Counted from the stretch's first letter, positions 1,240 to 22,139 are shown. The stretch is 32,000 bases of DNA from Hymenobacter glaciei (GCF_039539585.1 NZ_BAABDK010000010.1:1-32000); one strand, 5' to 3'. Translations and numbers: made by a program. Notes: generated by a model from the letters alone, not told the origin.

Positions 1240-1635
1240 TTAGGGAATTATTTGCGTCGCCGGAGCTAAGAAACCGCCGTTGGGAGCCGGTACTTGGCCG
1301 CCTACTATTTGTTCGTGGCTTACAGGTAAACCAGGTTCTGTTGGCTGACCACCAAAGATTGATGCACCACTTTTTCCTTGGGGCCCCGAAGGACCGTAGC
1401 TGGTCACTATTTGCCCGCGGCTACTGCCTGGTCCTTCAGTTATCACAACGTCGCCGCCTTTTCTAAAAATAAGACGTCCCCCACTACCGTTTGAATGGTA
1501 AACCGCATCGGGGTTAGACAATATTTCTATTTCCTTGGGGCGGCCTAAACGACCATGGTAGCCTTTGGTTTCTCGCACTTTTCCTGTTCGCGCTTCCTCA
1601 ATAGTTTTGTTAGTCGCTTTTAAGGGACAACCTGC
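1240..1635 (-). other. Toxin tip of orphan 1 (131 aa after the core-terminating ...DPNTWVDILGL motif); activity unknown
   Basis: The Rhs core ends at YYDPEAGQYISQDPIRL...WVDILGL. The following sequence (AGCPLKATNKTIEEARTGKVRETKGYHGRLGRPKEIEILSNPDAVYHSNGSGGRLIFRKGGDVVITEGPGSSRGQIVTSYGPSG...) is unrelated to the main Rhs tip and has lower GC than the core. I recognised no catalytic motif. Confidence 0.6.
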
Positions 1636-3234
1636 CAACCCGAGTATATCAACCCATGTATTGGGGTCGTTTACGTAAGAATAAAGTGCCCTACCGCCGC
1701 TGAGACGAATCGGGTCTTGGGAGATGTACTGGCCAGCTTCGGGGTCGTAGTAGCGGAAGCGGTTGTAGTAAAGGCCGGTTTCGACGTCCTTGTACTGGCC
1801 CTGGTAGCGGAACGGACAATCTTGCGCCCGGCCCAAGCCTTGGCGCACGGCCCCGTAGCAGTCGAGCTGCGCCTGCCACGTCTTGGTGCCGGCCTGGTCG
1901 TAGAGCTCGAGCGGCGTGCCCAGGTGGTCGCACACGACGCTGTAGCTGCCGTGGGCCGTGAGCTTGGCCGCCGGGGCAAAGCTGTGCTCCTCGAAGAGCC
2001 ACGTGATTACGTCATCGGCGCCGCCCGCCCCGGGCCCGACCTCCAGTTCGCTCCACTCGTGCAGCGGCACGTCCCCGTCCCAGACCCAACGCGTGACCCG
2101 GCCCCGGTAGCGCTTGCTCACCCGCCGGCCCAGCGCGTCGTACGCGAAGGCAACGGCGTAGCCGTCGGGGCGCTGGACTCGGGCCAGTTGGCCCGCCCCG
2201 TTCCACTCGTAGTGCCAAGCCTTGCCATCGGCCGTGGTTTTGCGCACCAAGTTGCCTTCTTCGTCGTAGCGGTAGCGCGTGCCGCCGGCCTGGCGCAGCT
2301 GCCCGCCGGGGGCGTAGGTTCGGTCGTCGAGGGCCGGCGTGCGGAACAGGTTGCCCACCGCGTCGGCCAGGCGCACGTCCGTGCTTCCGTCGGCGTAGCG
2401 CGCCCCGGTCAGCGTCCCGACCGCATCGTAGGCGTAGTGCGTGCTGCCGGCCAGCGAGTCCTCGATGGCCGCCAGCTGGTCGGCCCCCTACCAGGTGTAG
2501 CGCCGCTGCCGGCCGGCTCCACCGCCGCCCGTCACTTGCTGCTGCACCGGCCGGCCCTGCGCGTCGCGCTGCCAGCCCACGCGCACGCCCCCGCTCAGCG
2601 TGCGTTGCAGCTCCAGGCCCCGCACGTCGCGCCGCAGCTGCGCCTGCCAGTGCGCGCCGGCCTGCACGGCCGTGGTCTCGCCGCGCGCGCCGTGCTGCCA
2701 GGCGAAGGCTGCCCCAGCGAGGAATGCAGCCCCGTGCGCTGCCCGCGCGCGTCGTAGGCGTGGGTAAGCGTGTGCGCCCCTTGCTGCTCGCTCACCACCC
2801 GGCCCCGCGCGTCGCGCGCCAAGCGCACGGCGGTCGTGGCGGTGCGCGCCTCGGCCAGCCCACCGCCGGCGTCGTAGGTGAAGTGCTCGGCCGTGCCGTC
2901 GTGGTGGGCCACGGCCGTCACCCGGCCGGCCGCGTCGTATGCGTAGCGCGTGTGGCGGTCGGCCGGGCGCAGCACCTGCGCCACCCGGCCGGCCGCGTCG
3001 CGCTCGTAGCGGCGCACCAGCCCGTCGAAGCCGGTTTCTTCCACCACCCGCCCGGCGGCATCCAGTGCGAAGCGGTAGTGGCGGCCGTGCTCGTTGGTCA
3101 GGCCCGTGAGCCGGCCCTGGCGGTCGTAGGCGTAGCGCACTTCCTGCCCGGCCTGGCGGCGGGCGGCCAGCTGGTTGACGGCCGTGTAGGCGAAGTGCAC
3201 TTCCTGCGGCCCGTCCTGGGCGTGGGCCACGTTG

Positions 3235-3301
3235 CCCTCGGCGTCGTAGGCCAGGCGGGTTTCGCGGCCGTCGGGCTTGCGCAGGGCCACTACCTGGCTC
3301 A
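3235..3301. repeat. 67-bp direct repeat, distal copy (cassette boundary)
   Basis: ccctcggcgtcgtaggccaggcgggtttcgcggccgtcgggcttgcgcagggccactacctggctca matches 6180-6246 at 63/67 positions by my count. The GC-rich to AT-rich switch occurs immediately after it, at 3302/3303. Confidence 0.85.
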
Positions 3302-3305
3302 TATG

Positions 3306-3851
3306 TCAGACTAAAGCCTCAAGATGGTTCTTGCAAAGTGTAGCATGAGACACTGGTTTGGTTAAGTCGAATGGGTCAGAACCTGTATTATAATCAAGAA
3401 GGATTAATGATGAATTGGCAGCTATTTTACTTAGAGAGGCCATTTCGTCCTGCAAGTATTGCTCTATAACCCATGTATAACAAGGAATGTAAATTTCCTT
3501 CTTTGCAGTTACATAATCTAATATTGCTTTGCCTTCTACGCCTTTTCTATGCCCTATAATCTGCCCATTGGCTTTGCTTGTCCGTTTGATTCCTCTCATA
3601 TTGCTTACAGCAAACTTAGATTGGTCAATGTCACTGTTAACAAATACTTTCAAACCTTGCCAGATACCTTCAACTGAGACAGCGTAATAGCCTTGAGAAA
3701 AGGGAATAGGAATATTGCCGTGAGGATAAAAAGGACTGAGTTTCCTATATGGCATTGTCGCTTGGGATGTTGTGTCAATTATGGTAGGATTATCATAACG
3801 ACTCAATAGAGTTGAACGGGAAGTGCGCCTATTTTCAACATAAACTGGCAT
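3306..3851 (-). CDS. Hypothetical 181-aa protein carried on the AT-rich Rhs cassette; weak NADAR(YbiA)-like motif; possible second or enzymatic immunity factor
   Basis: ATG ORF, very AT-rich, last gene of the cassette. LSPFYPHG...IPFSQGYYAVSVEGIWQGLKVF resembles the NADAR pattern (FSNF ... SxEhyfQaxKF; E, Q at +4 and K at +7 are preserved relative to E. coli YbiA TSEHYFQAQKF). I could not see the C-terminal NADAR motif, so the assignment is tentative. Confidence 0.3.
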   Translation of the reverse strand: MPVYVENRRTSRSTLLSRYDNPTIIDTTSQATMPYRKLSPFYPHGNIPIPFSQGYYAVSVEGIWQGLKVFVNSDIDQSKFAVSNMRGIKRTSKANGQIIGHRKGVEGKAILDYVTAKKEIYIPCYTWVIEQYLQDEMASLSKIAANSSLILLDYNTGSDPFDLTKPVSHATLCKNHLEALV

Positions 3852-3871
3852 GGTTTACTGAATTTACTCTG

Positions 3872-4177
3872 TTAACAAAATAATGAATAAGCCAAGTCTT
3901 GCAGTTGTATCCCTGCATCTTCAATTTTATTTGTTTGGTATTCATCATAAATGCCTTCACGAAATGAAAAAGAGGCATATATGTCAACGAAGCACAGTGA
4001 TAACCTTTTAGGTACCATGTTCTTGTCTTGATAATATTCAACAAGAAATTCTATGGCTGATACTAAATGTTCAAATCTGACAATGTCTAATCCTTTGTGC
4101 TCCCTCAATTCTTGAGGAATAGAATTATCATTTGTAAGGCAAGAACATACAATGTCTAAAGCGGATTCTTCGTTCAT
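3872..4177 (-). CDS. Putative cognate immunity protein (101 aa) of the main Rhs toxin tip
   Basis: Small acidic cytoplasmic-looking ORF starting 15 nt after the rhs stop, same strand, same AT-rich composition as the toxin tip. This is the classic Rhs toxin-immunity arrangement. No family motif recognised. Confidence 0.6.
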   Translation of the reverse strand: MNEESALDIVCSCLTNDNSIPQELREHKGLDIVRFEHLVSAIEFLVEYYQDKNMVPKRLSLCFVDIYASFSFREGIYDEYQTNKIEDAGIQLQDLAYSLFC

Positions 4178-4192
4178 GAGTGTCGTTTGCTT

Positions 4193-4579
4193 TTAGCAGG
4201 GGCTAATTTTTGTGATTTTATCAGCTGGTACATGCCCTTCAACTAGCACCTCTTGAGAATTGATGGCGTAGTTACGTGCTGGACCTTTTACCCCAGCCTC
4301 TGCGGCCTTTTCAGGCGTTGTTAGGTCTACAATGCTGCGATTTCCATGAGAGTCGGGTACAACATTATTTGTGTCGAAAGTTACGGTTGTTTGCCCTTCT
4401 GCTCTCCATTTAGCAGCTACTTCGGGGTCAGTAGTGGTTGAAATGTATTGAGACCCCTTAAAATTGGCATTACTGCCGTTTCTTACGTGTCCGGCAGGGC
4501 TCATGCCGCGTCCAGGATTTTTGGCAGAAAGACCTTCCGCAGGATTTTCATTTGGCCTTAAGTTTCTGTATACAGGAAT
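4193..4579 (-). other. C-terminal toxin tip of the main Rhs; ADP-ribosyltransferase-like R/S/E motif spacing (tentative)
   Basis: Tip sequence is IPVYRNLRPNENPAEGLSAKNPGRGMSPAGHVRNGSNANFKGSQYISTTTDPEVAAKWRAEGQTTVTFDTNNVVPDSHGNRSIVDLTTPEKAAEAGVKGPARNYAINSQEVLVEGHVPADKITKISPC. It has aromatic-Arg (VYR), Y-I-S-T-T 42 residues later, and S-Q-E-V 63 residues after that. This matches the order and spacing of the R, STS and [QE]xE regions of R-S-E ARTs. The first position of the ExE-like motif is Ser, which is non-canonical. Confidence 0.4.
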
Positions 4580-7500
4580 TAGGCCTAAAACGTCTAGCCA
4601 ATTTTGAGTATTTTTTACGTACGCATATAGTCTTCCGCCACCCCACAATCTCAGAGGGTCCTGGCTGATATAGGTTCCGGCTTTAGGGTCATAATAACGA
4701 AAACGGTTATAATATAGCCCCGTTTCAGTGTCTTCGTATTGCCCTTGATAGCGGAATGGACAATCTTGGGGTTGTCCTTTACCTTGCCGTATAGCGCCGT
4801 AGGCATCAAATTGGGCCTCCCAAGTTGCATTGCCGTGTTGGTCATACATTGCCATTGGCGTCCCTAAATGGTCGCATACAACACTTTGGTTGTCGTTCGC
4901 CCTAAGCTTAGCGGTAAGCGCATGCGAATTCTCCTCAAATAGCCATGTAGCAAGCTCCTGCACTGCGGGATTCTTGTTACATGTCTCCAACTGTTGCCAT
5001 TCGTGCAGTGGCTTACTGCCGTCCCATACCCATCTAGTTGTCACACCCCTATAGTTTTTACTAACACGTCGCCCCAGTGCGTCATAAGTAAACGTAACCG
5101 CATAGCCACTTGGTAGGATTACAGCCACCAGTTGCCCCTTTGGACCCCAGGTATAGTGCCAAATATCGCCGCTTTGCGTCACCTTCCGTACGAGATTACC
5201 CTCATCATCGTAATGGTAACGTGTCCCTTCCGCTTCGCGCAACTGGCCGCCGGCTGCATAGCGGCGGTCCTTGCAAGTGGATGAGCGAAATAAGTTGCCT
5301 ACCGCGTCGGTTAGCCGTACGTCTTGGTCGCCGTTTGCGTAATGGGAACCAATGAGCGCGCCACAAGCATCATAAGCATAACGTGAGGTGCCCAGGTCGT
5401 TACTATCGTCAATGGCTGCTAATTGGTCAAGTCCCTCCCATTGATAACGCCGCTGCCGGGTGCTGCCCTTTCCTACAACATGCTGCTGTGTTGGGCGCCC
5501 CAATTGGTCGTGCTGCCAACCTACACGCACACCTCCACTGAGAGTTCGCTGCAATTCCTTACCGCAGGCATCATGAAATAAATTGGCTTGCCACTTTTCG
5601 TTAGCTTCTACGGTTGCCAACCGCCCAAGGGAGTCATGCTGCCAAGCAAAGCATGCACCCAGCGAGGAGCTTAATGCTGTGCGCTGACCGCGCAAGTCGT
5701 AATTACTTACAACCGTATGTTCGCCTTGTTGCTCTTTCACCACACGCCCCAGTGTATCGCGCTCAAACCGAATAGTAGTGGAATCGTTACGAGCTTCAAG
5801 CAGTTCTCCATTAGCTTCGTAGGTAAAGTGTTCGCTGGTGTCATCATCAAAACGCACTTCTATAATTCGTCCAGCAGCATCATAGCTATAAGTAGTGATG
5901 CAGCCATTGGCACGATGAGCAGTTACCACTCGACCGGTAGCATCCCGCTTGTAGCGGCGCAATAAGCCGTCGAAACCTTCTTCTGTCACCACCCTGCCTG
6001 CAGCATTAAGGCCAAAGCTGTAGCGCTGCCCATATTCATTTGTACAGCCTATAAGGCGGGCCTGGCGGTCATATGCAAAGTGCAGTTCCTGTCCTGCTTG
6101 ATGCCGTACTGCTAAACGATTCACTGCAGTATACTTAAATGCTGCTTCAAGATTGTCGGTTCGCATCAACAGCACATTTCCCTCGGCGTCGTAGGCCAGG
6201 TGGGTTTCGCGGCCGTCAGGCTCGCGCAGGGCCACTACCTGGCCCAGGCGGTCGTAGCGGCGGTGTTGCGTGTGGCCCAGCGCGTCCGTTGACGCCACCA
6301 GGCGGCCCAGCGCGTCGTAGGCGCGCGAGCGGATACTCTCGTCGGGGGCCACCACGTGGGCCAGGTTGTGCTGGCCGTCGTAGCGCAGGCGCGTGGCGTG
6401 GCCCAGGGCATCGGCTAGCTCCACGGTCCGGCCCTGCGCGTCGTAGCGGTAGCGCGTCGTGGCGCCGGTCGGGTCGGTTTTTTCGGCCAGCTGCCCGGCC
6501 TCGTTGTAGGCCCACTGCCAGGCGCTCCCGCCCGCGTCGGTGCCCTGCACGGGCCGGTCGCGGTCGTCGAACGCCGTGCGCTCCTGCCCGCCGTCGGGGT
6601 AGGCCACGGCGGTGCAGTTGCCGCGCGCGTCGTAGGTATAGGTAGTGGTGTGGCCCAGCGGGTCCTGCACGGCTTCGAGCTCGGCGTAGACGTTGTAGCG
6701 CCAGTGGTGCTGGGCCCCAAGCGGGTCGATGTGGGTCGTGACCAGGCCCTGCTCGTGGTAGTACACATCCACGGCGGCCGGGTCATCGGTGTAGAGCGTG
6801 GTGCAGCCGGGCTCGTACACGAAGCGTCCGTTGTAGTAGTTCTCGTCGCCCCAGGTGCGCGTGCAGCGGCCCAGCGCGTCGTATTCGTAGTAGTAGGACG
6901 TGCCCTCGGCGAAGGTTTTGCGCACCAGCCGGTTTCCCTCGAAGTGGAACTGGCGGGTGTGGCCTTCGGCGTCGCTCATCTGGGTCATGTGGCCCGCCTC
7001 GTCATAGGCATACCGCACGGCGACGAAACTGCCGGCCGAGCCGTCGGGATGGGGCAGGCTCACCGTCAGCATCCGGCCCTGGGCATCGGTGGTAATGCCA
7101 ACGGGCCGCCCCACGCTGTCGACAAGGCGTTGCAGGTGGCCCCGCTCGTCGTAGTCAAACCGAACCGCGTGCCCGTAACCGTCGGCAATTGCCGTCAGGC
7201 TGTACTGTTCCGGTTGCGCCACGGATGGCACAAACCGGTAGGTAAGCTGTTCAATGGTGCTGTACACTTCGTAGCCATCAAGCCCCCCGGGAGCCGGGCG
7301 AAGCTCTAGTTTACGGCCGCGGTGGTAGCTGCAGTGGTCATTCTCCGGGGCGGGAGCATCAAAAACGGCCAGGCGGCCGTCGCCCAGGCGCATGGCCACG
7401 GTACCCGTACTGGCCTCGGGCCACAGGGCCAGGTCGTAGCGGTGGTGCCAGCCGTAGCCCAACGGGCCTTTTCTTTCCGAAGTCGAGTACCAGGTGCGCT

Positions 7501-8497
7501 CCCAAATTACCGGTACCGGGCCGGGGAGCGTGAAGTCGACCGAATCAAAAAACATCGCTCCCGAAGCCACGTCAACTGGGTCGTTGCGGCCCGTACATTT
7601 GGTTTTTTCCGCACCTGGCGTGGTTTCGAGCTTTTGAGCACCGGCTACTTCCTCCACCCGACCGCCAATTTCATTCGCCTTGGCTTCAATTACCTTGGCC
7701 CCGAACAACACCACCAAATCGCTGGCCAGAACCAGGCCATTCGCCAGGGTAGGCTTTTTATAAAAGGCAAAGGCATCGGCCGCCGTGGCTATGCCAAACA
7801 TGGCCCCTGATGCTTCCATCAAGGCTAGTGAAGCCGGCCCGCCGGCCACGGCCGCCGCACCGCCCACGGCCCCCATTGCTGCTCCTATCAGTAGCCCGCC
7901 GGCCGCGCCTTTCACGGCCCCCATGGTGCCGCCGTGCGCGTAGCCTTCCATGCCGCCGGCTACGGCACCCACGCCACCCCCGATTACAGCTCCTGTAGCT
8001 GCAGCACCTAGCACCAGGGGCAGGGCTGCTCCGCCCGTAGCAACTACCACGACCACGGCCACCGCAATTGCCGCGAAGAAAAGCAGGCCGGCTTGTGCTT
8101 TCGCCTCTTCGGCCACCTTCTTTGCAGCGGCCTCCTGCTGGTCGTCGGCCAGGGCCTGGGTAACGGCGGCCCGGGTAAAGAAAATATCAATTTTGCCACC
8201 CAGCGTACAAGGCAAAAAGGAGTCGTCCATCAGCGGGTTCTGGGGCATGCCCATGGCCACGATTTTGGTGCTGCCCAGCAGCGGGTTTTGCCAGCGCACG
8301 GTGGCCGGCACGCACGGCGCGTGCGTGATGGCGCACAAGCCGAAAGAGGTGACGTTCACCAGGGGCAGGGCGTCGCTTTCCACGGCCCATTTCTCGTCGT
8401 AGAGGTTGGGGCCGGGGCGCATAATTTGCAGCCGGCAGGGCGTCACTCCTTTGTCACACTTCAGGAATACGTTGGCGGGAACGTGCTTCTTGCTCAT
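4193..8497 (-). CDS. rhs: T6SS Rhs-family polymorphic toxin with an N-terminal PAAR-like (DUF4280-like) domain, a Gly/Ala-rich hydrophobic region, YD/RHS repeats and a 128-aa C-terminal toxin tip
   Basis: 1434-aa ORF. N-terminus MSKKHVPANVFLKCDKGVTPCRLQIMRPGPN...FGLCAI...LPCTLGGKIDI resembles DUF4280 PAAR-like domains. Aa ~135-245 are Gly/Ala-rich hydrophobic. There are many YD repeats (RYAYDEAGHM, YTYDARGN, RYRYDAQGR, YSYDAAGR). The core ends ...FRYYDPKAGTYISQDPLRL...NWLDVLGL. The gene is compositionally chimeric: 6180-8497 is GC-rich and 4193-6179 is AT-rich. Confidence 0.9.
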   Translation of the reverse strand: MSKKHVPANVFLKCDKGVTPCRLQIMRPGPNLYDEKWAVESDALPLVNVTSFGLCAITHAPCVPATVRWQNPLLGSTKIVAMGMPQNPLMDDSFLPCTLGGKIDIFFTRAAVTQALADDQQEAAAKKVAEEAKAQAGLLFFAAIAVAVVVVVATGGAALPLVLGAAATGAVIGGGVGAVAGGMEGYAHGGTMGAVKGAAGGLLIGAAMGAVGGAAAVAGGPASLALMEASGAMFGIATAADAFAFYKKPTLANGLVLASDLVVLFGAKVIEAKANEIGGRVEEVAGAQKLETTPGAEKTKCTGRNDPVDVASGAMFFDSVDFTLPGPVPVIWERTWYSTSERKGPLGYGWHHRYDLALWPEASTGTVAMRLGDGRLAVFDAPAPENDHCSYHRGRKLELRPAPGGLDGYEVYSTIEQLTYRFVPSVAQPEQYSLTAIADGYGHAVRFDYDERGHLQRLVDSVGRPVGITTDAQGRMLTVSLPHPDGSAGSFVAVRYAYDEAGHMTQMSDAEGHTRQFHFEGNRLVRKTFAEGTSYYYEYDALGRCTRTWGDENYYNGRFVYEPGCTTLYTDDPAAVDVYYHEQGLVTTHIDPLGAQHHWRYNVYAELEAVQDPLGHTTTYTYDARGNCTAVAYPDGGQERTAFDDRDRPVQGTDAGGSAWQWAYNEAGQLAEKTDPTGATTRYRYDAQGRTVELADALGHATRLRYDGQHNLAHVVAPDESIRSRAYDALGRLVASTDALGHTQHRRYDRLGQVVALREPDGRETHLAYDAEGNVLLMRTDNLEAAFKYTAVNRLAVRHQAGQELHFAYDRQARLIGCTNEYGQRYSFGLNAAGRVVTEEGFDGLLRRYKRDATGRVVTAHRANGCITTYSYDAAGRIIEVRFDDDTSEHFTYEANGELLEARNDSTTIRFERDTLGRVVKEQQGEHTVVSNYDLRGQRTALSSSLGACFAWQHDSLGRLATVEANEKWQANLFHDACGKELQRTLSGGVRVGWQHDQLGRPTQQHVVGKGSTRQRRYQWEGLDQLAAIDDSNDLGTSRYAYDACGALIGSHYANGDQDVRLTDAVGNLFRSSTCKDRRYAAGGQLREAEGTRYHYDDEGNLVRKVTQSGDIWHYTWGPKGQLVAVILPSGYAVTFTYDALGRRVSKNYRGVTTRWVWDGSKPLHEWQQLETCNKNPAVQELATWLFEENSHALTAKLRANDNQSVVCDHLGTPMAMYDQHGNATWEAQFDAYGAIRQGKGQPQDCPFRYQGQYEDTETGLYYNRFRYYDPKAGTYISQDPLRLWGGGRLYAYVKNTQNWLDVLGLIPVYRNLRPNENPAEGLSAKNPGRGMSPAGHVRNGSNANFKGSQYISTTTDPEVAAKWRAEGQTTVTFDTNNVVPDSHGNRSIVDLTTPEKAAEAGVKGPARNYAINSQEVLVEGHVPADKITKISPC
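6180..6246. repeat. 67-bp direct repeat, proximal copy (recombination junction inside the rhs gene)
   Basis: 63/67 identical to 3235-3301. It marks the point where the rhs gene switches from GC-rich (above 6180) to AT-rich (below 6180) while the protein stays Rhs-like. Confidence 0.85.
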
Positions 8498-9419: not shown

Positions 9420-11231
9420 TTAGTGAACCTTGGTGTCGCTTGATTGCAGCGTCGCCTTCGAGCCGCCGTGCAGGGCCAGTTCGGTATTTGACTGGACTGT
9501 GGCTTTGGATGTGCCCACAACCAGTACCTCCTTCGCCGTGAGGGACATTTTATCCTTCGCAGCATCCACAGATACGCCCTTGTTTTTGGCGGCAATTTTC
9601 ACATCGTCCTCGGCCACCATGGTGATGGTCTTGGCGTGCATCTTAATCTCGCCTTTCTCGCCTGCCTCGAGCGTAATGACTGAGCCGTTGACCGTGACCG
9701 GCCCCTTGCTGTGGATGTGCACGCTGCCATCGCCCTTAAAGCTGACCGACACCGCCGTGTCCTTGTTGTTGGAGTTGGAAAGCAAAATCGTCTGCTCGCC
9801 CTTCTTATCCGACATCACCACCTTGTTGCCGCCGGCCGTTTGCATGCCTTTGAGGTGGTTGTCGGGCGTGCTGTACTTGGCGCCCTGTTTGTTCTGCGGG
9901 TGAAACAAGTTGCCGAGCACCACGGGGAAATCGGCCAAGCCGTGCTCGTAGCCCACGAGTACCTGCGAGCCTTTTTCGGGCGTGAACATCTGGCCTTTGC
10001 CGTCGCCTGAATAGGGCGTACTCACGCGCACCCAGCCGGTTTCGGCGTCGGCGGGTTTTGCTACCGGCCAGTAATAGCGCACCCGGATGCGGCCTAGGTG
10101 GCGTGGGTCGGCCAAGTCAATTACCTCGGCGAGCTCGGGCTGCGCATCCGAAGCAGGGTAGAGTGGGTTGGCCGGTGCGGCGGGGGCCGCGTCGGGCATG
10201 GCCTCAAAGTGGTTGCTGTAGTTACCATCCCCATCCACTTCGTGGCGCACGGCTAGCACCCGAAATTTGCCGTAGGCAGCGCCCGCGGCGTCCTGCACGT
10301 CGAGCACGCTGCCCGGTACCATATCGAAGGTTTCCCCGCTGCCTTCCAGGCTCACCTGGTTGCCAGCCCGCTTAGCAGCCAGCCCATCGATGGCGCGCTG
10401 CAACTGGGCCTGGTCGTTCAGCTGGGTGCCGGCCTGCAGCCGGTGCGGCTGCGAGAATAGCTCGTCGGACTTTTGCACTGCAAACTGGCCAAACGGGTGC
10501 CCCGCCGTGGGTGCCGCCGCCTTTGTTTTTAGGGGCTGGTGGGTGCGGTAGTTGTAGTGTGCGCCTTCGGCCTTGCCCGGCTGCAGGTGCATCGAGAGCG
10601 TGAATACCTGCGCACTGCTGCTCTTGAATGAAATGGATTTGCCCGCGCCCTGGCCCAGCCGCAAGGTGGTGCCGTCGTAGTACAGCCACTCGCCCTGCTG
10701 CGCCGCCAGCCGACTCAGGAAGTTGAAGTTGGTTTCGTTGTACTGCACCACGTACGGCAGTACATCCTGGCTTTGGGCCTTGAGCTGCTTTTGCAGCGGG
10801 TTGCCGGGATAATCGCCCAGCACCTGCGTGAAAATGGCCTGCAGTGACTTCTTCACAAACGTGCGGCTCTGCGTACCGTCTTCCAGCAGAAAGGTGGGGC
10901 TATAGCCACTCACGTGGTAATAGTTCACCAAGTCGGCATCGGTTTGGATGCTAACGTGCGTGATAATGCCCTTGAACTCGAACGAGCGGCCGCCGTTGTC
11001 CGGCATGTTACTCGTCCAGCCAATGGTGATGTTCTTGCCGCTTAGCTTCTGGTGGGCCTGAGTAAACAGGGTTTCTGGCTTGAGACCAAGGGCCTTACCT
11101 AGGGCCTCGAACGAAAAGTCGAGTGCGAACGAATGGTGCGTGAGCACGTGCTGGCTTAGCGTGAGCTTGTTGTAGTCGGCAAGGGTAGTGCCACCATCAA
11201 CATGCACGCTAACGTTTACTGGATAGGACAT
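9420..11231 (-). CDS. vgrG: T6SS spike protein VgrG (TssI)
   Basis: 603 aa with gp27/gp5-like layout typical of Bacteroidota VgrG. The N-terminal region is MSYPVNVSVHVDGG...YNKLTLSQHVLTHHSFALDF. It has the RIRVRYYWP motif and a C-terminal beta-helix-like repeat region (KVVMSDKKGEQTILLSN...VHIHSKGPVTVNGSVITLEAGEKGEIKMHAKTITMVAEDDVKI). Confidence 0.9.
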   Translation of the reverse strand: MSYPVNVSVHVDGGTTLADYNKLTLSQHVLTHHSFALDFSFEALGKALGLKPETLFTQAHQKLSGKNITIGWTSNMPDNGGRSFEFKGIITHVSIQTDADLVNYYHVSGYSPTFLLEDGTQSRTFVKKSLQAIFTQVLGDYPGNPLQKQLKAQSQDVLPYVVQYNETNFNFLSRLAAQQGEWLYYDGTTLRLGQGAGKSISFKSSSAQVFTLSMHLQPGKAEGAHYNYRTHQPLKTKAAAPTAGHPFGQFAVQKSDELFSQPHRLQAGTQLNDQAQLQRAIDGLAAKRAGNQVSLEGSGETFDMVPGSVLDVQDAAGAAYGKFRVLAVRHEVDGDGNYSNHFEAMPDAAPAAPANPLYPASDAQPELAEVIDLADPRHLGRIRVRYYWPVAKPADAETGWVRVSTPYSGDGKGQMFTPEKGSQVLVGYEHGLADFPVVLGNLFHPQNKQGAKYSTPDNHLKGMQTAGGNKVVMSDKKGEQTILLSNSNNKDTAVSVSFKGDGSVHIHSKGPVTVNGSVITLEAGEKGEIKMHAKTITMVAEDDVKIAAKNKGVSVDAAKDKMSLTAKEVLVVGTSKATVQSNTELALHGGSKATLQSSDTKVH

Positions 11232-11356
11232 GCAGTAAGGGAAGAGTGGAAAGAGGAAGCGTAAAAGTAACCGATTTAACTAAACTTCGCCAGCGAGTGC
11301 TTTCGGAAGTTCCTGCATGAGGCTTTTCACCGGTTTTCATCCACTGTGCGCCGGTG

Positions 11357-11556
11357 CTTTTCCGTACTGTGCTGTACCTTGCCCCCGAACCAACCTTCCT
11401 TTCCATGAATCCAGGTTTTCAAGAAGGGCGTCGGCCGCGGGCCAACGCCGTGGCTTCGTTGGCCCATACCGGCCACGCGAGCCCCTGAGCCGCCGGCCTA
11501 GCATCGGCGCGGTAGCGCACGCGCCCAGCCTTACTGGGCGGCCGGGACCGCGGCCG
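11357..11556 (+). repeat. Conserved leader, copy A (upstream of module A); 88-bp core at 11388-11475 identical to 13482-13569
   Basis: Direct comparison with 13451-13639 shows the core is 88/88 identical, with recognisable but mismatched flanks. A 1-nt indel (agcccct vs agccccct) changes the reading frame between copies, arguing that it is non-coding. It contains a perfect 9-bp hairpin, gggccaacg-ccgtggctt-cgttggccc, at 11439-11465. Confidence 0.8.
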
Positions 11557-12702
11557 ATGTCGGCCCGTCAAACTACCGCTGTTAACCAATGGAATGCCGC
11601 GACAAAGCGCGTGGTAGCCCAGTTCTTGCGGGATGCGCAAAACACGTCGCGCCAGCGTGCGTTCAACCGTGAAAACGCTGCTGCCGAAGCAGAGTGGTCG
11701 GACCGAGCTACCAAACGCGCGTGGGAAAGCAAGCTTTTTCCCAGCTATGACCCCCGTGGGGGCAATGCGTACGGCGTTGACGTGGCGGATACCGGTGGTT
11801 GGGCCACCGGTTATCACGGACACAAATTCGGAGAAATGTGGGTGTACATCCGCGTGAAGGGACACCACAATACGCTGGAATACGCCGTGCTGAACCCCCA
11901 GACCGGTAACCTGTTCGTGTTTACACCGGAGGCTGCTTTGGCTCCCCCAAACCGGGTTTACATGTCGGAGGCTGACCAAGTGCGGAGTACGGCATCGGGT
12001 ACGGGGGTAGCAGGAGGCTACCTTGAAAAAGGCTTTATGGGCCTCTCAGTAGGCATAATGGCCGCTCCGCTCGTGCTTGCCGCTTCAGAAACAGCCGTTG
12101 GCGGAATAGTTATCACGGGCTTCCGCACCCTGGGAATGCAAATGGTCAAGCAATTCACTTGGAGTACGTTCCGGCAAAAGGTTTTTACCGACCTCTTTGT
12201 GCAAAGCGCAGCAGGCACTCTGAAGAACGGAGCCGATTGGAAAAAAACAGCAGGCGAAATCAACTTGACTGCACCTCTTGTTGCGTGGCTCTTGCCAGGC
12301 TCAACGTGGTCCGCTGCTGCCCGTAATAGCATAGTCAAGGCTACCTTGAAAGCCAATACGACCATTGATGAGGAAAACAACATTAGCTTCAGGGTGCAGT
12401 TGCCTCACCTGGATTCCATGGAAGGGTTTGCTAAATATTTGACTGACATCGGTACTGATGCCGTGGCTACCATGGCTAAGGCCAAATTAGTAACCGGTGC
12501 CATACCAGCCGCACGCTGGGCTTCGCAAGCCATGCAGCGCACAGGCACTGCTGCCGGCCGTTGGATTGCTGCGCAGCGAGTAACCCTAGGAACGTGGGGC
12601 ACCATCGGCACAAGCGTGGTGAGCAAAGTGGCCAAAGACCAGGAAAAGAAGCGAATGACAGACCGCGTTGAGAAGCCTTCCCCCGCTCATCCGCGCCAAT
12701 GA
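11557..12702 (+). CDS. Module A gene 1: hypothetical ~381-aa protein with a soluble N-terminal region and a hydrophobic Gly/Ala-rich C-terminal part; candidate T6SS cargo effector
   Basis: I trimmed ORF 11317..12702 to the ATG at 11557 (MSARQTTAVNQW...) because the upstream extension lies in the non-coding conserved leader. It is a paralogue of 13640..14809, sharing the block ASGTGVAGGYLEKGFMGLSVGI vs AAGTGVVGGYMEKGFLGVSAGM and the N-terminal MSA(R/Q)Q. No family recognised. Confidence 0.6.
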   Translation: MSARQTTAVNQWNAATKRVVAQFLRDAQNTSRQRAFNRENAAAEAEWSDRATKRAWESKLFPSYDPRGGNAYGVDVADTGGWATGYHGHKFGEMWVYIRVKGHHNTLEYAVLNPQTGNLFVFTPEAALAPPNRVYMSEADQVRSTASGTGVAGGYLEKGFMGLSVGIMAAPLVLAASETAVGGIVITGFRTLGMQMVKQFTWSTFRQKVFTDLFVQSAAGTLKNGADWKKTAGEINLTAPLVAWLLPGSTWSAAARNSIVKATLKANTTIDEENNISFRVQLPHLDSMEGFAKYLTDIGTDAVATMAKAKLVTGAIPAARWASQAMQRTGTAAGRWIAAQRVTLGTWGTIGTSVVSKVAKDQEKKRMTDRVEKPSPAHPRQ

Positions 12703-13220
12703 AACTGCCCACGATGCGGATAAAAAGCTTGCTGCTCACGATTGGGCTGTTGGGATTTGTGGGCGTCTATGCCTACTATCTCTATCGTACCCGTGAAGGG
12801 CTCATGCACCGGGGCAAGTACACCATTGGGTATGTGACAGGGGCTGCGCTAACGGTCGGTAGCGGTTGGACCCTCGAGTACCGCTTCGAAGTGAACGGCG
12901 AAACTTATACCGGCTCACGCAGAGAGGAGAGCAAGACAAATACTGCTGTCGGGGCTCGCTATCTGGTAAAATACGATAGCCTTTCTCCGGACTGGCACCA
13001 AGTGTACTACGAAGCATCGGTGCCGGACAGCATTCGGCAGGCCCCACGCAATGGTTGGCGCCACCGTCCCTGGCCCGACCCGGCGCATCCCGAGGCTTCC
13101 GCCCCGCAACCAGCGGCCCGGCCGGCGCGCAGTTCGGCCGAGGCGGCCATGTGGCGCGAGATGGACGCAACCCAAGCGTCGGCCGATTCGCTTGAGGCCC
13201 GCGCGCGCCGCGCGCCGTGA
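12699..13220 (+). CDS. Module A gene 2: small protein with an N-terminal TM anchor (DUF3592-like appearance); candidate immunity protein
   Basis: Its ATG overlaps the gene 1 stop (ATGA at 12699-12702). It has a TM helix (SLLLTIGLLGFVGVYAYYLY). It is a paralogue of 14806..15249, sharing RGKYTIGYVTG / RARYTIGYITG, YRFEVNGETY / YRFAVKGKEY, GARYLVKYDSLSPD / GARFLVEYDSLDPE and SVPDSI. Confidence 0.6.
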   Translation: MKLPTMRIKSLLLTIGLLGFVGVYAYYLYRTREGLMHRGKYTIGYVTGAALTVGSGWTLEYRFEVNGETYTGSRREESKTNTAVGARYLVKYDSLSPDWHQVYYEASVPDSIRQAPRNGWRHRPWPDPAHPEASAPQPAARPARSSAEAAMWREMDATQASADSLEARARRAP

Positions 13221-13450
13221 GTGACTGCGGCGGACTTTGCAAGCACCAGTAGAACCCAATCAATTTTCATTCTCAACCGCACCAGAAGGCATGTAAGATG
13301 GCTGCTAGAGCAAGCTGCGGTTTATCAGCATAGTTGCTGGGCACCGAGCCGTAGCCACGGGTTAATGACCGGGCAAGGCGTCCAGACAGAGGGTAGAGAA
13401 GAGCTTCTAGGGCTACGGGCAGTCCCATCGAGCTGCCGTACGGTGGAATT

Positions 13451-13639
13451 CTTTCCAGTACTATGCAGTAACTTGCCCCAAAACCAACCTTCCTTTCCAT
13501 GAATCCAGGTTTTCAAGAAGGGCGTCGGCCGCGGGCCAACGCCGTGGCTTCGTTGGCCCATACCGGCCATACAAGCCCCCTAAGCCGCCGGCCCAGCATC
13601 GGGACGGTAGCGCACGCGCACAGGCCAGGACCCCAGCCC
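13451..13639 (+). repeat. Conserved leader, copy B (upstream of module B)
   Basis: See copy A. The identical core is 13482-13569 and the hairpin is 13533-13559. Confidence 0.8.
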
Positions 13640-14809
13640 ATGTCAGCTCAGCAGGTTGCGAGCATAAATGCTGCCCACAGCAATACAAAGCGCGCAGTAA
13701 ACCAAGTTGTTCAACTCACGAAAGAAGAAGCTTGGCGCCTGAACTCTGATGCTCGGCTGCGCCAGCAAATGGAGCGCCTGCCTTACTCAGCGTACGACGC
13801 TAATACAGTTGACCCCAGTGCTAAAAAGGATGTGGTTGACGAACATGATAATCCGCTAGGGCAGGAGCGTTATGTGATAGGGCATCTTTGGGTGTTTGCC
13901 AGCACGCTCAATGATGCATTTGGCACACGCAAGTACTGGGTATACAATACCAAAACCCAGGTATTGGTGTCGTTCGAGCCAGAACATGGCATAGCAGCCA
14001 AAAACCGGACGTATATGCCGGCAAACGCCCAGTTTAGGAACATGGCTGCCGGCACGGGCGTGGTGGGGGGCTATATGGAAAAAGGATTTCTGGGCGTAAG
14101 TGCGGGCATGCTCACCGGAGGTCTGATTTACGAGATAGGTGGCGTTGCAGTGGTAGGCACTGCTATCCGCGCCTATCTAGTGAAAACCGCTAAAGGTGCC
14201 GGCACACGGATATTGGTTGATTTGACTACGCAGTTTGGCGTCGGTGCGGTAACCGGCAAAGGCTCATGGAGTCAACGCGCGCAAGCGTCTTTCATGGACA
14301 TAAACTGGGTTTCGGCGCTTGGAGCAGCAGCAGTAAATACTGAGGGTTTGCGCTGGCATGCCAAGTTACTGGCTGCTTTTGGTACTTCTGTTGGGTCCAA
14401 TGCTTATTCCTTCAAATTCAACAATGAGGAAAAATACCATAGCCCGGGGCATATGGTAAATATAAACGATGCCAAGGAAAGCAAAGATTTTGTCATCAAT
14501 GTTATTTTAGGCACCGTGTTCGACCAAGCCAAGGAATATGGCGCCCCGTGGCTCGAAAAGGTAATGCGCAGCACCCCCAACACGATGGGCATGTTAACGG
14601 CATTGAAACACCGCCGGGTGGTGCCGCGCTTAAGTGCCAGCAAAGTTGACCAAAGTATGGTGGCAGTTCTTAGCTATCACATGGGCGGGGCCATGGAAAC
14701 CATCAAAAAAGGAGTTGAAAACTACTTTGCCGACAAGCAAGAGCAACAGGAGGCGGCCAAAAAAGCGGCGCTGCGGAAAAAAACAGCTGCGCGGCCGAGT
14801 AAGCCATGA
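13640..14809 (+). CDS. Module B gene 1: hypothetical ~389-aa paralogue of 11557..12702; candidate T6SS cargo effector
   Basis: I trimmed ORF 13499..14809 to the ATG at 13640 (MSAQQVASINAAH...) by analogy with copy A. It has the same conserved hydrophobic block and a lower GC than the T6SS core genes. Confidence 0.6.
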   Translation: MSAQQVASINAAHSNTKRAVNQVVQLTKEEAWRLNSDARLRQQMERLPYSAYDANTVDPSAKKDVVDEHDNPLGQERYVIGHLWVFASTLNDAFGTRKYWVYNTKTQVLVSFEPEHGIAAKNRTYMPANAQFRNMAAGTGVVGGYMEKGFLGVSAGMLTGGLIYEIGGVAVVGTAIRAYLVKTAKGAGTRILVDLTTQFGVGAVTGKGSWSQRAQASFMDINWVSALGAAAVNTEGLRWHAKLLAAFGTSVGSNAYSFKFNNEEKYHSPGHMVNINDAKESKDFVINVILGTVFDQAKEYGAPWLEKVMRSTPNTMGMLTALKHRRVVPRLSASKVDQSMVAVLSYHMGGAMETIKKGVENYFADKQEQQEAAKKAALRKKTAARPSKP

Positions 14810-15249
14810 GTCGTTTTTTTACCTGGGCTCGTAAATATTTAGTGTATCTGGTCATCGGCATTTGCTTGGCTGGCGGGTGGTATGGCATGCGGGCCAAGCA
14901 AACGATGCATACCCGGGCCCGTTATACCATTGGATACATCACTGGCGGGATATACCGACCCAAAAGTGGCAAAAGCTATAGCTACCGCTTTGCGGTAAAG
15001 GGCAAAGAATATGAGGCTACCGATATCAGCGAGGCTGGAATGGAAACGGAGAACGGCGCACGATTTCTGGTCGAATACGATAGCCTAGACCCGGAGGTAA
15101 GTACTGGGCATTTTACCGTTTCTGTGCCTGATAGTATAGCTGCTAGCCCACCCAGTGGCTGGATTATTCCCCCTTTCCCTAATAAGGCCATAGGCCATCC
15201 GATGAGGCTAAGCCAGCCGAGTGGACATCTTTTCCGGATAATTTTATGA
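14806..15249 (+). CDS. Module B gene 2: small TM-anchored paralogue of 12699..13220; candidate immunity protein
   Basis: ATGA start/stop overlap with gene 1 (14806-14809). TM helix YLVYLVIGICLAGGWYGM. The conserved motifs are listed under 12699..13220. Confidence 0.6.
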   Translation: MSRFFTWARKYLVYLVIGICLAGGWYGMRAKQTMHTRARYTIGYITGGIYRPKSGKSYSYRFAVKGKEYEATDISEAGMETENGARFLVEYDSLDPEVSTGHFTVSVPDSIAASPPSGWIIPPFPNKAIGHPMRLSQPSGHLFRIIL

Positions 15250-15758
15250 GGAAGTTATTGTTCGCCACCTCACTACTGGTGGCTTGTTCTGCGCCCACAG
15301 CACCACAAAGCGGTGTAGCAGAAATGGAAGCACCAGTGGCCGACAAGCACGATGCCTTGTTGGCCGCCAAAACAGGATATGACGGGCACCATTTGGGCGA
15401 CTCGCTGAGTCGCTTCACCATTTCCTCGCTAAAGCTGGTGCCCCGGCTGTGGCCGGCAGTGATGTATACGGTGCCGAGCCATACGCTACGCCTTGATACA
15501 ATTCCACTCAGCGGCATCAGCTACGAGTTTTGGCACGGCAAACTCTACCAAATCGATTTCAATTCCCGGCACTCGGGGCTGCTTGAAGCCGGCAAAATGA
15601 TGTATGGCCCAGGCGAGCAGGTTAGCCCCACCGAGTACCGTTGGCAGGGCCAACACAGCTCGGCAAGCTATACCACAAATGGCCCAATAAACTACCTGCG
15701 GGTTTTCGATAACGCAGCAGCTATACAGGTAGACTCAGCCGTCGCAACCGCACAGTAG
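15246..15758 (+). CDS. Putative lipoprotein (170 aa), translationally coupled to module B
   Basis: MRKLLFATSLLVAC has a signal peptide with an L-V-A-C lipobox. Its ATG overlaps the preceding stop (ATGA at 15246-15249). No family recognised. Confidence 0.6.
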   Translation: MRKLLFATSLLVACSAPTAPQSGVAEMEAPVADKHDALLAAKTGYDGHHLGDSLSRFTISSLKLVPRLWPAVMYTVPSHTLRLDTIPLSGISYEFWHGKLYQIDFNSRHSGLLEAGKMMYGPGEQVSPTEYRWQGQHSSASYTTNGPINYLRVFDNAAAIQVDSAVATAQ

Positions 15759-15841
15759 CACCACGCGGTGGTACGCCTGCAAGCGTCCGGGTGGTGCTAC
15801 TGCGCGGATTTACTCACCCATTTCCAAATGGGCGGCGGCTG

Positions 15842-19755: not shown

Positions 19756-20742
19756 TTACAGCGGAGGGAAGGGGATGCCTTCGCGCTGCATCCAGGCCCG
19801 CATGGCTTGGCGAGCCGGTAGTTCTTCTTTCGTCCAGGCTTTGCCTACCACGTCGGGCTGGGCTCCGAGGGCATCCAGCTTGATGCGCCAGGCGTGGCCT
19901 TCGGGCGTTTGCTCCCACTTTTCGCGGATGGCCGCGTAGCGCTGGGCGCCGGAGGAGGGCACCGGAAACTTCACGCCCTTCGCCATCAGCAGGTGCTTGA
20001 CTTTGATTTGCCACTGGGTTGCTTGCGCATTGCCAATGTCTTTCTCCTGGGTGTTTAGCGCAATACTGCCGTTGTCCTTGCGCCAGTCGGCCCCGCGTTC
20101 GAGTAAGTAGTGCACCAATTCAAAATAATTGAGCCGGGCCAGCACAACGGCCGCCGTCGCCCCGGAGCTATCCATAGCATCAATATCAGCCCCACGGTCA
20201 AGGAGCAGCTTCATGCGCTGGTATTGGTGAGCGTACATGGCATTGTGCAAGGCCGGTTCCTTGCGTTCGTCTTTTGCATTGGGGTCAGCACCGAGGTCGA
20301 GCAGGGCCACGAGCAACTCGTCTTGGGGGCCTCCGGCGGCGATGTTGAGCAGGTGCGTGGTGTCGGTGCCGCCCTTTTCATTGGGTAAGTGCAGCGGGCG
20401 GTTGGGGTCGGCGTGGTGGGCCACCAGCGTTTTCATGGCCTTCACGTGGTGGTGGGCGTAGGCCCAGAACAGGAACGTGACGCCCTGCCGGCCTTCCTGG
20501 TTAGCATCCAGGCCCGGGTGCTGGGCAAAAACTTTGTCAAGGGCCGATATGTCGTCGGCCCGGATGGCCCGGGCCACGTCCAGCGCCGGGGATGTCGGAA
20601 AATACTCCTCCGGCGCGTGCTTGTAAATGGGATTAGTAACCGCTTGCATACAGCCAAATAGATGAAAAGGAAAAAGAAGAAATACGGCCACCGCCATGCG
20701 TAACCGCCGACTTAGCAGCCGCTGATTCACCCGTTGCTTCAT
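19756..20742 (-). CDS. Ankyrin-repeat lipoprotein; putative periplasm-facing immunity protein for the Hcp-lipase effector
   Basis: The N-terminus RMAVAVFLLFPFHLFGC has a signal peptide and a lipobox-like LFGC. Ankyrin-like repeats are present (TFLFWAYAHHHVKAMKTLVAHHADPN; LLVALLDLGADPNAKD; ALHNAMYAHQYQRMKLLLDRGADIDAMD; ELVHYLLERGADW). Its start overlaps the effector stop by 4 nt (20739-20742). Confidence 0.7.
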   Translation of the reverse strand: MKQRVNQRLLSRRLRMAVAVFLLFPFHLFGCMQAVTNPIYKHAPEEYFPTSPALDVARAIRADDISALDKVFAQHPGLDANQEGRQGVTFLFWAYAHHHVKAMKTLVAHHADPNRPLHLPNEKGGTDTTHLLNIAAGGPQDELLVALLDLGADPNAKDERKEPALHNAMYAHQYQRMKLLLDRGADIDAMDSSGATAAVVLARLNYFELVHYLLERGADWRKDNGSIALNTQEKDIGNAQATQWQIKVKHLLMAKGVKFPVPSSGAQRYAAIREKWEQTPEGHAWRIKLDALGAQPDVVGKAWTKEELPARQAMRAWMQREGIPFPPL

Positions 20743-22139
20743 GGGGCTAAGTAGTAGGTGAGGGTGGCCGTATCCACGTCTTTTTCGGCTTCAATATGGT
20801 CCACCATCTGCGGGCTGATGCCGTGGCCGTGCAACGCCATGGTTTTGGCCGCCGTGAGCGGGTTGCCTTTCACCAGCTCACTCCAGCCGTGTTTCCATTT
20901 TTCAGCGGGTGCGACCAGATGGGGCACCCCCAATGCTTTGGGTAGCACGACCCCCCGGGTAACCAGCGAAGCTTTCTGCGCGTTGTTGAGCGGGTCCGAA
21001 GTTGAACGGTAGGCATCAATCAGCGCCCCTTGCTCTTTCATCACCGACCGTGAAACTGCGTAAGGGGCGCGCTTGACCGTGTTGGTGTGCAGGCCTGCCG
21101 CGTTGAAAGTGTAACTTTTGATGCCTGTCACGACGGTTGCGGCGCTGGCTAGCCCACCGCCGAGGGAGTGGCCGGTTGTTTCCATATCGAGTGGGTCGCC
21201 TGAGTTGGCAACGCTGGTTGCTAAACTCATGGCCCGGTCATACTGCGCATCTTTCAGCCCCACGCCCTGGCGCAGGTCGGATAGAATATCCGGCTTGTCT
21301 TCCGTGCCGGCGTAAGCGATAACCAGCTTCGGAGGCCGCTCAAACGAGGATTGGTACAGTGCGGCCTTGAAGCCCGACTTCGGGTCGAGCAGCATCTCAG
21401 GCGACACGCCTTTCGCCCCTAGCTCGGCCGGGTTCAGCATGTGCCATCCCTCCGGCTCGGGTATGCGCAGCGTAGCGGGATTGCCCAGTTCATCCAGGTC
21501 AAACTCGTCGCTGTGGTACACGTGCCCGCTGAGGCGGGCACGTTCTACGGCCACATTGTTGCGTTGCAAGCGCTCCAAGGCCGTTTGAGCGGGCGCGTTG
21601 GCCACACCGGTCAGCTTCTTCTGGGCATTGGCCATCATGCTCATCCGTACATCGTAGCGTTGCTGCTTCGATAGCTCGGCCACTGCTGCGAGCGGTGCCA
21701 GGGTCTCGGACGAGGGCACGTAGGCGTACTCCCGGGCGGCGGCCGACGCCATTGCCCGAACCGGCCCACCACTTATCAGTTCCAGGCGAGTAGCGGAAAC
21801 GACAAGGTTGCATACGTAGGCGCCGGCCGTGCCATCGCCCGAAACAAACGTTTCGTGGTAGCCCACGCACTGGCCAGCCTCCCAGGACAGGGTTTCGCGG
21901 GCCGTGTGGCGCCCGGTGTCGAAAAACGTGACGTGCCCAGCAAGGGGTTTGTGTGCGGTATTGCCCCAGTCGAGCAACAGGTCATCGTCGGGCACGTCCA
22001 GCGCGAGGTGCACCAGGCCGTGGCGCACCTTGGCCGCGGTCCGGCCGCGCTCGTTGGTGGCTTGCGTAAATTCGAAGTAGCAGCGGCGCACCGGGTAGAC
22101 GCGGCCGCTCACTTCCAGCTCGGCTTGGAAAGACGCCAT
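20739..22139 (-). CDS. Hcp(TssD)-domain fused to a C-terminal alpha/beta-hydrolase (class-3-lipase-like, GHSLGG) toxin domain: specialised Hcp effector
   Basis: Aa 1-~125 are a full Hcp/TssD domain (see 15842..16246). The C-terminal part contains KLVIAYAGTEDKPDILSDLRQG...METTGHSLGGGLASAA, the GxSxG nucleophile elbow in lipase_3-like context (xAFRGT...GHSLGGALA). Later candidate catalytic residues are Asp (STSDPL) and His (ALHGHG / VDHIE). Confidence 0.75.
   Translation of the reverse strand: MASFQAELEVSGRVYPVRRCYFEFTQATNERGRTAAKVRHGLVHLALDVPDDDLLLDWGNTAHKPLAGHVTFFDTGRHTARETLSWEAGQCVGYHETFVSGDGTAGAYVCNLVVSATRLELISGGPVRAMASAAAREYAYVPSSETLAPLAAVAELSKQQRYDVRMSMMANAQKKLTGVANAPAQTALERLQRNNVAVERARLSGHVYHSDEFDLDELGNPATLRIPEPEGWHMLNPAELGAKGVSPEMLLDPKSGFKAALYQSSFERPPKLVIAYAGTEDKPDILSDLRQGVGLKDAQYDRAMSLATSVANSGDPLDMETTGHSLGGGLASAATVVTGIKSYTFNAAGLHTNTVKRAPYAVSRSVMKEQGALIDAYRSTSDPLNNAQKASLVTRGVVLPKALGVPHLVAPAEKWKHGWSELVKGNPLTAAKTMALHGHGISPQMVDHIEAEKDVDTATLTYYLAP

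Follow-up and report, generated by a model that had tools for sequence, protein, structure and literature searches.

Constant N-terminal segment of a polymorphic, probably T6SS-delivered protein family as the likely identity of a repeated sequence beside vgrG in Hymenobacter glaciei

The perfect 88-bp repeat near vgrG in Hymenobacter glaciei is best explained, with a probability of roughly 0.8, as part of the constant 5' end of a polymorphic, probably T6SS-delivered family of membrane-active proteins whose cassettes would be exchanged through it. The constant end would consist of a promoter-like block (about 11357-11387), a short G-poor 5' untranslated region (5'-UTR), and a translated N-terminal segment of 47 to 53 residues, and the 88-bp core would be the portion of it over which the two H. 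glaciei modules happen not to differ. The constant segment would serve as the stretch through which homologous or homology-facilitated recombination inserts or replaces cassettes, so that both modules would carry their own genome's version of the segment, with a recent event of this kind producing the 88/88 identity. Retention of the encoded peptide would reflect a role in loading the protein onto the T6SS spike or targeting it there, and the small DUF3592-like proteins encoded downstream would act as immunity factors. One of the two copies, copy A, would have lost one C from a run of five, and translation from its ATG would consequently end after 27 codons.

The window, which is the whole 32,000-nucleotide stretch of DNA that was analyzed (NZ_BAABDK010000010.1:1-32000), is a Bacteroidota-type T6SS(iii) cluster. 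Its minus strand encodes VgrG, a 287-amino-acid protein, and a PAAR-like Rhs protein accompanied by orphan Rhs fragments, and its plus strand holds the two modules, A and B; farther along are two TssD genes and genes for TssE, TssF, an Hcp fusion and an ankyrin protein, ClpV, a TssB-like protein, and TssC. The features around the repeat are as follows.

9420-11231, minus strand: VgrG (TssI) gene, divergent from the modules; its DNA diverges in step with the constant segment
11357-11404, plus strand: predicted promoter-like block and short G-poor 5'-UTR of copy A, with CTTTT (a -33-like element) and GTACCTTG
11388-11475, plus strand: 88-bp core, copy A, read as the last 17 nt of the 5'-UTR and codons 1-24 (the first two bases of codon 24)
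11405-11488, plus strand: first 27 codons of the constant segment (MNPGFQEGRRPRANAVASLAHTGHASP), start codon included, copy A, with a premature TGA at 11486-11488
11482-11485, plus strand: C4 run of copy A, predicted site of a 1-nt deletion (compare C5 in copy B)
11482-11556, plus strand: second half of the constant segment and linker (PLSRRPSIGAVAHAPSLTGRPGPRP), copy A, in the frame of the downstream gene
11557-12702, plus strand: variable body ("cargo", A-type) as annotated by NCBI, WP_345050869.1, 381 amino acids, 83% identical to the cargo of locus L014
12699-13220, plus strand: small membrane protein cognate to A (DUF3592-like, immunity-like), 82-87% identical to its counterparts in L014 and L015
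13451-13498, plus strand: predicted promoter-like block and 5'-UTR of copy B (CTTTCC ... GTAACTTG); the duplicated unit starts here
13482-13569, plus strand: 88-bp core, copy B, identical to the core of copy A
13499-14809, plus strand: full gene of copy B, 436 amino acids (NCBI start 13640), with constant-segment codons 1-47 (13499-13639) and a B-type body
14806-15249, plus strand: small membrane protein cognate to B (DUF3592-like, immunity-like), 74-75% identical in L017, L001, and L019
15246-15758, plus strand: third gene of module B, 170 amino acids, which travels with B-type modules

Direct string comparison confirmed that 11388-11475 and 13482-13569 agree at 88 of 88 positions, and the bases bordering the core differ on both sides (G in copy A and A in copy B on the 5' side, C and T on the 3' side). 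The flanks are similar with mismatches, as had been noted before, and the weaker similarity spans 11357/13451 to about 11575/13658. Positions 11357-11387 and 13451-13481 are identical at 24 of 31 sites, and because similarity farther upstream is random (13 matches in the 50 bases 5' of 11357/13451), the repeat has a sharp start at these two positions. Downstream of the core, a 1-nt indel distinguishes a C4 run in copy A (11482-11485) from a C5 run in copy B (13577-13581), a 12-nt indel leaves extra bases in copy A at about 11528-11539, and the blocks between the 1-nt and 12-nt indels are identical at 38 of 43 and 23 of 35 positions. The observation that the shared ATG is in the frame of the gene only in copy B also holds: ATG 13499 opens an open reading frame (ORF) of 436 codons, whereas ATG 11405 in copy A opens one of 27 codons that closes at the TGA at 11486-11488. 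The variable bodies of A and B share 29% protein identity over 233 residues, and the small proteins encoded 3' of them are 39% identical to each other. The 230-nt spacer between the modules (13221-13450) showed no similarity to any fetched locus.

The earlier note on this DNA had proposed a search for further copies of the element, and such copies exist. A protein search returned 22 homologues (labeled P0020 and so on), 25 loci (labeled L0xx) were fetched from genomes and metagenomes, and tblastn placed 23 copies of the peptide in them, including 18 VgrG-adjacent primary copies in Hymenobacter genomes and metagenomes; with the peptide alignment as query, the genome collections yielded 4 true loci and the metagenome collections 1. 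All 18 primary homologues sit 110 to 185 nt from the vgrG start on the opposite strand, and every Hymenobacter T6SS(iii) cluster sampled has one such gene immediately divergent from vgrG. Three Saccharibacteria matches from the peptide scan (L005 to L007, positions 4001-4075, reading RPRANAVASL...PL(A/S)RR in one frame) were set aside as degenerate-pattern matches that most likely arose by chance inside an unrelated gene.

The core had been described as evidently non-coding and as not being a conserved N-terminal extension, and both descriptions are contradicted by the homologous loci. In the 18 VgrG-adjacent homologous genes, the shared ATG (11405/13499) opens an N-terminal segment of 47 to 53 codons with the consensus MNPGFQEGRRPRANAVASLAxTGHxSPLxRRP..G..H...RPGPxP, followed by (M/L/I)SA, and all of the homologues called in long form start with this peptide and carry it through RPGPxP(M/L/I)SA. 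The peptide is nearly invariant among proteins with bodies that are only 28 to 40% identical. Over the first 25 codons, the mean pairwise differences at codon positions 1, 2, and 3 are 0.11, 0.07, and 0.40 in the 18 primary copies and 0.12, 0.08, and 0.40 in all 23 copies, so that substitutions fall mostly at third positions, 23 of 24 of which are variable; because only one third position is invariant, nucleotide-level constraint beyond coding is not seen. Over 150 nt, frame 0 is open in 17 of the 18 primary genes, with copy A of H. glaciei as the sole exception, and frame +1 is closed in all 18, while changes in linker length between homologues are whole codons. Relatives of both A and B carry the peptide in frame, including the copy A orthologues P0020 and P0021, and a hand count of codons 24-47 gave about eight synonymous and four nonsynonymous differences between A and B. 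The core is read on this basis as the end of a short 5'-UTR followed by codons 1-24 of an N-terminal segment that is conserved, and the substitution pattern shows purifying selection at the protein level on this predicted segment.

The NCBI gene models start both H. glaciei genes at an internal Met (11557 and 13640), which leaves the repeat intergenic. This Met is absent in 4 of the 18 primary genes (L011, L014, L004, and L026_1), a further point against a non-coding core, and proteins P0029 to P0033 likewise have Leu, Ile, or another residue in its place. Public gene models are inconsistent for the H. glaciei pair and for several homologues (P0004 and P0007 to P0009), in which they start at or after the internal Met and leave out the most conserved 47 to 53 residues. 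A correction of the gene models would restore the most conserved part of the protein, which the internal-Met annotation hides in H. glaciei and in several database homologues. An alternative upstream start for copy A, ATG 11317, opens an ORF of 461 amino acids; it was rejected, as it would read the core in a frame unlike that of all relatives, and sequence 5' of 11357 is not conserved.

Upstream of the ATG, similarity between species collapses except for a G-poor leader and a GTAyCTTG box, which lies at a constant distance from the ATG (-31 to -24) in nearly all VgrG-adjacent copies. In H. glaciei copy A, this is GTACCTTG, a TAnnTTG box fixed at -31 to -24. Bacteroidota promoters differ from the sigma-70 type and have a -7 element with the consensus TAHHTTTG (PMC6847099). 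The GTAyCTTG box resembles this -7 element and may function as a promoter; the candidate box, TAnnTTG, is 7 nt long and lacks one T of the consensus, and it would give a 5'-UTR of about 20 nt. On the opposite side of the intergenic region, the 58 nt adjacent to the vgrG start (11232-11289) are 80 to 90% conserved across Hymenobacter loci, whereas the middle of the intergenic region is not, and these 58 nt probably contain the vgrG promoter and 5'-UTR.

Comparison of the loci indicates that the constant segment and the rest of the protein have separate histories. Pairwise DNA identity between segments shows no correlation with identity between the cargo proteins (r = 0.00) but follows DNA identity between the adjacent vgrG genes, compared over their first 360 nt (r = 0.74, Spearman p = 6e-24), and vgrG and cargo are likewise uncorrelated (r = -0.05); these correlations use non-independent pairs, so the p-values are indicative, and several of the loci are metagenomic contigs. 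Among close relatives, segments with about 80 to 100% DNA identity are joined to cargos with 28 to 40% protein identity. The cargo of L014 is 83% identical to that of copy A, yet its segment is only 83% identical to that of copy A, whereas copies B and A have 29% cargo identity and 100% identity over the core. In L016 and L026, vgrG and the segment are 96% identical and the first cargos (L016_1 and L026_1) only 28% identical: L016 contains an extra A-type module in the vgrG-proximal slot, behind which lies a displaced L026-type module with a 2-nt deletion and ACG replacing the internal ATG, followed by a remnant that retains only the segment. The DUF3592-like gene follows the type of cargo (72 to 87% identity among A-type and 74 to 75% among B-type modules, versus 33 to 45% otherwise). 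These data fit the suggestion in the earlier note that the element is a recombination handle for swapping effector cassettes, and they show, as far as sequence comparison reaches, that the segment evolves with the vgrG backbone and that the body and the small membrane protein form a cassette unrelated in type to that backbone.

Tandem arrays with decaying segment copies recur in other genomes, as the same comparison of predicted modules shows. Arrays were found in L016 (three copies), L017 (two), L026 (two), and H. glaciei (two), and the lesions in displaced copies include loss of the ATG (CTG, GTG, or GTA), frameshifts, and handle-only remnants; the second copies in L017 and L026 have GTG or GTA replacing ATG. 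The 5' edge of the repeat varies by array, lying at -48 in H. glaciei and at -17, -4, and +1 elsewhere, and the edges therefore speak for separate recombination events and against a site-specific mechanism. The handle-only remnants L016_3 (L016 4294-4467) and L017_2 (L017 3707-3856), have CTG or GTG for ATG, run into early stops, and carry no cargo; both are found at the far end of their arrays, just ahead of tssD. In L002, L003, L009/L010, L011, and L020, a single cargo gene is followed on its 3' side by two to five tandem DUF3592-like genes, which look like arrays of orphan immunity genes. In H. glaciei, an inverted repeat at 15748-15807, between the convergent 170-amino-acid gene and tssD, is a candidate bidirectional terminator.

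The identity between the two H. glaciei cores exceeds what coding constraint would leave. The 68 coding bases are identical in A and B (68/68), compared with 78 to 88% identity in the other arrays and a mean of 81% and a maximum of 97% for segments from different contigs. Because the chance of 68/68 identity is about 3e-8, as estimated from column frequencies and 246 between-contig comparisons, coding constraint alone is inadequate to explain the 88/88 match. The repeated recombination or conversion that had been inferred earlier from the identity of the two cores is borne out to this extent, and the match indicates a recent recombination or duplication in the H. glaciei lineage, which would have been either the tandem insertion of a conspecific module with the same backbone allele or a short intragenomic conversion tract.

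An alternative account holds that the repeat is purely a recent local gene-conversion or duplication tract and that nothing sets the segment apart from other N-terminal coding sequence, with no role as a loading signal or as a favored substrate for recombination. It agrees with the restriction of 100% identity to H. glaciei among the arrays and with the differing 5' edges of the repeats, but it does not explain why the breakpoint between backbone and cargo lies repeatedly at the 3' end of the segment or why modules are bordered by copies of the segment in no fewer than four independent arrays. Across all cargo types, moreover, the peptide is far more conserved than the remainder of the protein and so appears to be under a strong constraint of its own; a tract of this kind without further function is considered unlikely. 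A cis-regulatory 5'-UTR RNA or operator that is common to both cassettes, acts through a 9-bp hairpin, and precedes genes starting at 11557 and 13640 would suit the intergenic position of the repeat in the NCBI annotation, and the perfect 9-bp stem with a 9-nt loop reported for H. glaciei is indeed there (11439-11447 paired with 11457-11465). The stem exists, however, because the Ala-Asn codons (GCC AAC) and the Leu-Ala codons (TTG GCC) are reverse complementary, and it is not conserved. Among the 22 distinct sequences in the alignment of 23, 4 keep its central A-U pair, which elsewhere is lost through the synonymous Leu change of TTG to CTG, and in 10 the two outer pairs are disrupted. Consensus folding by RNAalifold omits the stem in favor of another structure that is itself weak (covariation term, -0.19 kcal/mol), and no compensatory changes in the stem, for which the earlier note had proposed looking, are supported in this alignment. 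The minimum free energy of the 88-nt core, -33 kcal/mol, is unexceptional, as 11 of 200 shuffled sequences fold equally well (z = -1.8), and Rfam 15 gave nothing at the gathering threshold in the whole window and nothing at E <= 10 in 11200-13900. Pairing in the noted structure is slightly above that in column shuffles (84.3% versus 82.8% of paired cells, reached by 2 of 500 shuffles), and a minor RNA-level effect on translation could accompany this weak excess. The codon-periodic substitutions, the whole-codon indels, the reading frame kept open in nearly all primary genes, and the four relatives with no start codon at the alleged downstream start all run against an RNA element; given the codon-position data, the RNA reading looks refuted and is assigned a very low probability. 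Structured 5'-UTR regulators such as riboswitches and leader RNAs resemble the H. glaciei element in their 5' position on two paralogous operons and in the hairpin, but the element differs from them in its codon periodicity and in having neither covariation nor an Rfam match, and it does not appear to be a new regulatory RNA.

Two further alternatives concern the frame of copy A, which reads AGC CCC TGA where copy B and L024 read AGC CCC CTN and other relatives AGC CCG CTG. The ORF from 11405 closes 68 nt 5' of the ATG at 11557 and could on that ground be taken for a separate leader peptide or upstream ORF (27 codons, MNPGFQEGRRPRANAVASLAHTGHASP) regulating the downstream gene, a role that the earlier note had considered. 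The stop, however, occurs only in copy A of H. glaciei and is due to one missing C, copy B and all 16 other primary loci read the same ATG into the gene, and the codons past the stop are still conserved in the frame of the gene. The free-standing leader peptide thus appears to be an artifact of the frameshift in copy A, and a regulatory upstream ORF is a most improbable explanation. Full-length A protein could instead be made by recoding, through a -1 P-site slip of tRNA-Pro on C CCC UGA (11482-11488) that would yield ...SP-LSRRPS...; the C4 run lies directly 5' of the stop, and reading on after a -1 shift reproduces the conserved sequence exactly. No relative has this arrangement, though, and most read AGC CCG CTG in frame; a conserved shift site for programmed ribosomal frameshifting was not found, every other sequence being in frame at this position, and there is no conserved stimulatory structure. 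Other displaced copies have degenerative lesions of different kinds (2-nt and 8-nt deletions and lost start codons), and a homopolymer error in the assembly could equally have produced the C4 run, so recoding merits as little credence as the upstream ORF. Addition of one C to the run restores a 432-amino-acid protein that is collinear with P0020 and P0021. The lesion is read as private to this genome, namely, the loss of one C from a C5 run, and as a real mutation or a homopolymer error rather than a conserved site of recoding; the sequence as it stands would at best allow the A body to be made from Met 11557 without the constant segment.

The constant segment, understood as the N terminus of an exchangeable family, belongs to what appears to be an undescribed, Hymenobacter-restricted family of vgrG-adjacent polymorphic proteins. 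An exhaustive phmmer search with the peptide against 1.84 billion representatives gave six matches, all within the same protein superfamily and restricted to Hymenobacter, and the tag is consequently not common to unrelated cargo. Neither module protein matched a Pfam or NCBIfam model. A twin-arginine (Tat) signal (GRRPRANAVASLA) was considered and rejected, as the peptide matched no NCBIfam or Pfam signal model and its hydrophobic stretch is only about 8 residues long. AlphaFold2 with a 21-sequence alignment gave a poor model (pLDDT, 49.6), in which residues 1-47 are of low confidence and contain a short helix at 13-21. The A and B genes are probably toxin-like. The strong conservation of the segment together with its location beside vgrG suggests a spike-loading or targeting tag, and a membrane-active toxin accompanied by immunity proteins would account for the glycine-rich hydrophobic core of the body and for its membrane-protein partners; these effector and immunity roles are drawn from position, polymorphism, and the glycine-rich hydrophobic segments only. 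A more specific proposal, which is tentative, is that the segment is a new effector-loading tag of the Bacteroidota-type T6SS that docks diverged membrane-active toxins on the divergently encoded VgrG and, as the sole invariant stretch, doubles as a portable homology arm for cassette exchange between Hymenobacter strains, with the promoter-proximal copy expressed and the downstream copies serving as a silent reservoir. To our knowledge, almost nothing is known about the recognition of T6SS(iii) effectors, and the constant segment offers a handle for effector-loading experiments in Bacteroidota.

The N-terminal domains MIX, FIX, RIX, and PAAR/prePAAR are markers or loading domains of polymorphic T6SS effectors. 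The Hymenobacter proteins resemble effectors of this type in combining a short conserved N terminus with diverged C-terminal parts and in being encoded beside spike components. They differ in that the segment matches no Pfam or NCBIfam model, occurs in Hymenobacter only, and has a loading role that is predicted; in the window, the PAAR-like DUF4280 domain is present only on the Rhs protein.

The organization of the modules also parallels that of other polymorphic loci, in that the Hymenobacter genes have a constant N terminus, a cognate small gene, incongruence between backbone and cassette, and displaced degenerate modules. As in Rhs/CdiA orphan loci, for which the displacement model is discussed in PMC5361080, a constant region is joined to a variable toxin-like part with a cognate small protein downstream, displaced tandem modules keep a fragment of the constant region, often without a proper start, and the constant and variable parts are phylogenetically incongruent. 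The constant region of Rhs/CdiA proteins, however, exceeds 1,000 codons (a YD-repeat shell or filamentous hemagglutinin), compared with about 50 codons and a promoter-like block in Hymenobacter, where the variable part is nearly the whole protein. The Hymenobacter variable types are also distant homologues of each other, whereas those of Rhs/CdiA are unrelated toxin domains, and no RHS or CDI domains were found in the Hymenobacter module proteins. In Vibrio cholerae, T6SS effector-immunity modules adjoin vgrG and are swapped between strains via conserved 5' sequence by homologous or homology-facilitated recombination, with older modules and immunity genes pushed downstream (Kirchberger et al. 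2017, PMC5361080). The extra modules and the two to five copies of small membrane protein genes in Hymenobacter are similar to these arrays. The conserved 5' sequence in V. cholerae consists of vgrG or adaptor genes on the same strand (PMC5361080), whereas in Hymenobacter it would be the first 50 or so effector-like codons, divergent from vgrG in a T6SS(iii) cluster. The Hymenobacter family may thus provide a compact example, in 50 codons instead of kilobases, of the constant-region and orphan-module logic of Rhs, CDI, and Vibrio T6SS loci.

The minus strand of the H. glaciei window itself provides a textbook case of Rhs organization, a classical orphan array at 12-8497 in which the main PAAR-like (DUF4280) Rhs gene lies at 4193-8497; a 160-nt repeat from the end of the Rhs core (4685-4844) recurs at 1741-1900 (85% identity) and at 82-241, and these copies mark displaced Rhs C-terminal modules at 1240-2376 and 2595-3302. 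A gene for a DUF6939 protein (3306-3851) lies among these Rhs elements. Among the fetched loci, the L004 contig is labeled as a Janthinobacterium lividum metagenome-assembled genome and contains a Hymenobacter-like vgrG (72% identity) and a gene with the constant segment, and the taxonomic label of the bin looks doubtful for this contig. At 19756-22139 on the minus strand of the window, a protein with an N-terminal Hcp (TssD) domain and a long C-terminal extension (466 amino acids) is followed by an ankyrin-repeat protein; the two are likely an Hcp effector and its immunity protein, since the same Hcp-fusion/ankyrin pair in L011 (16346-18854) carries a phospholipase-like domain.
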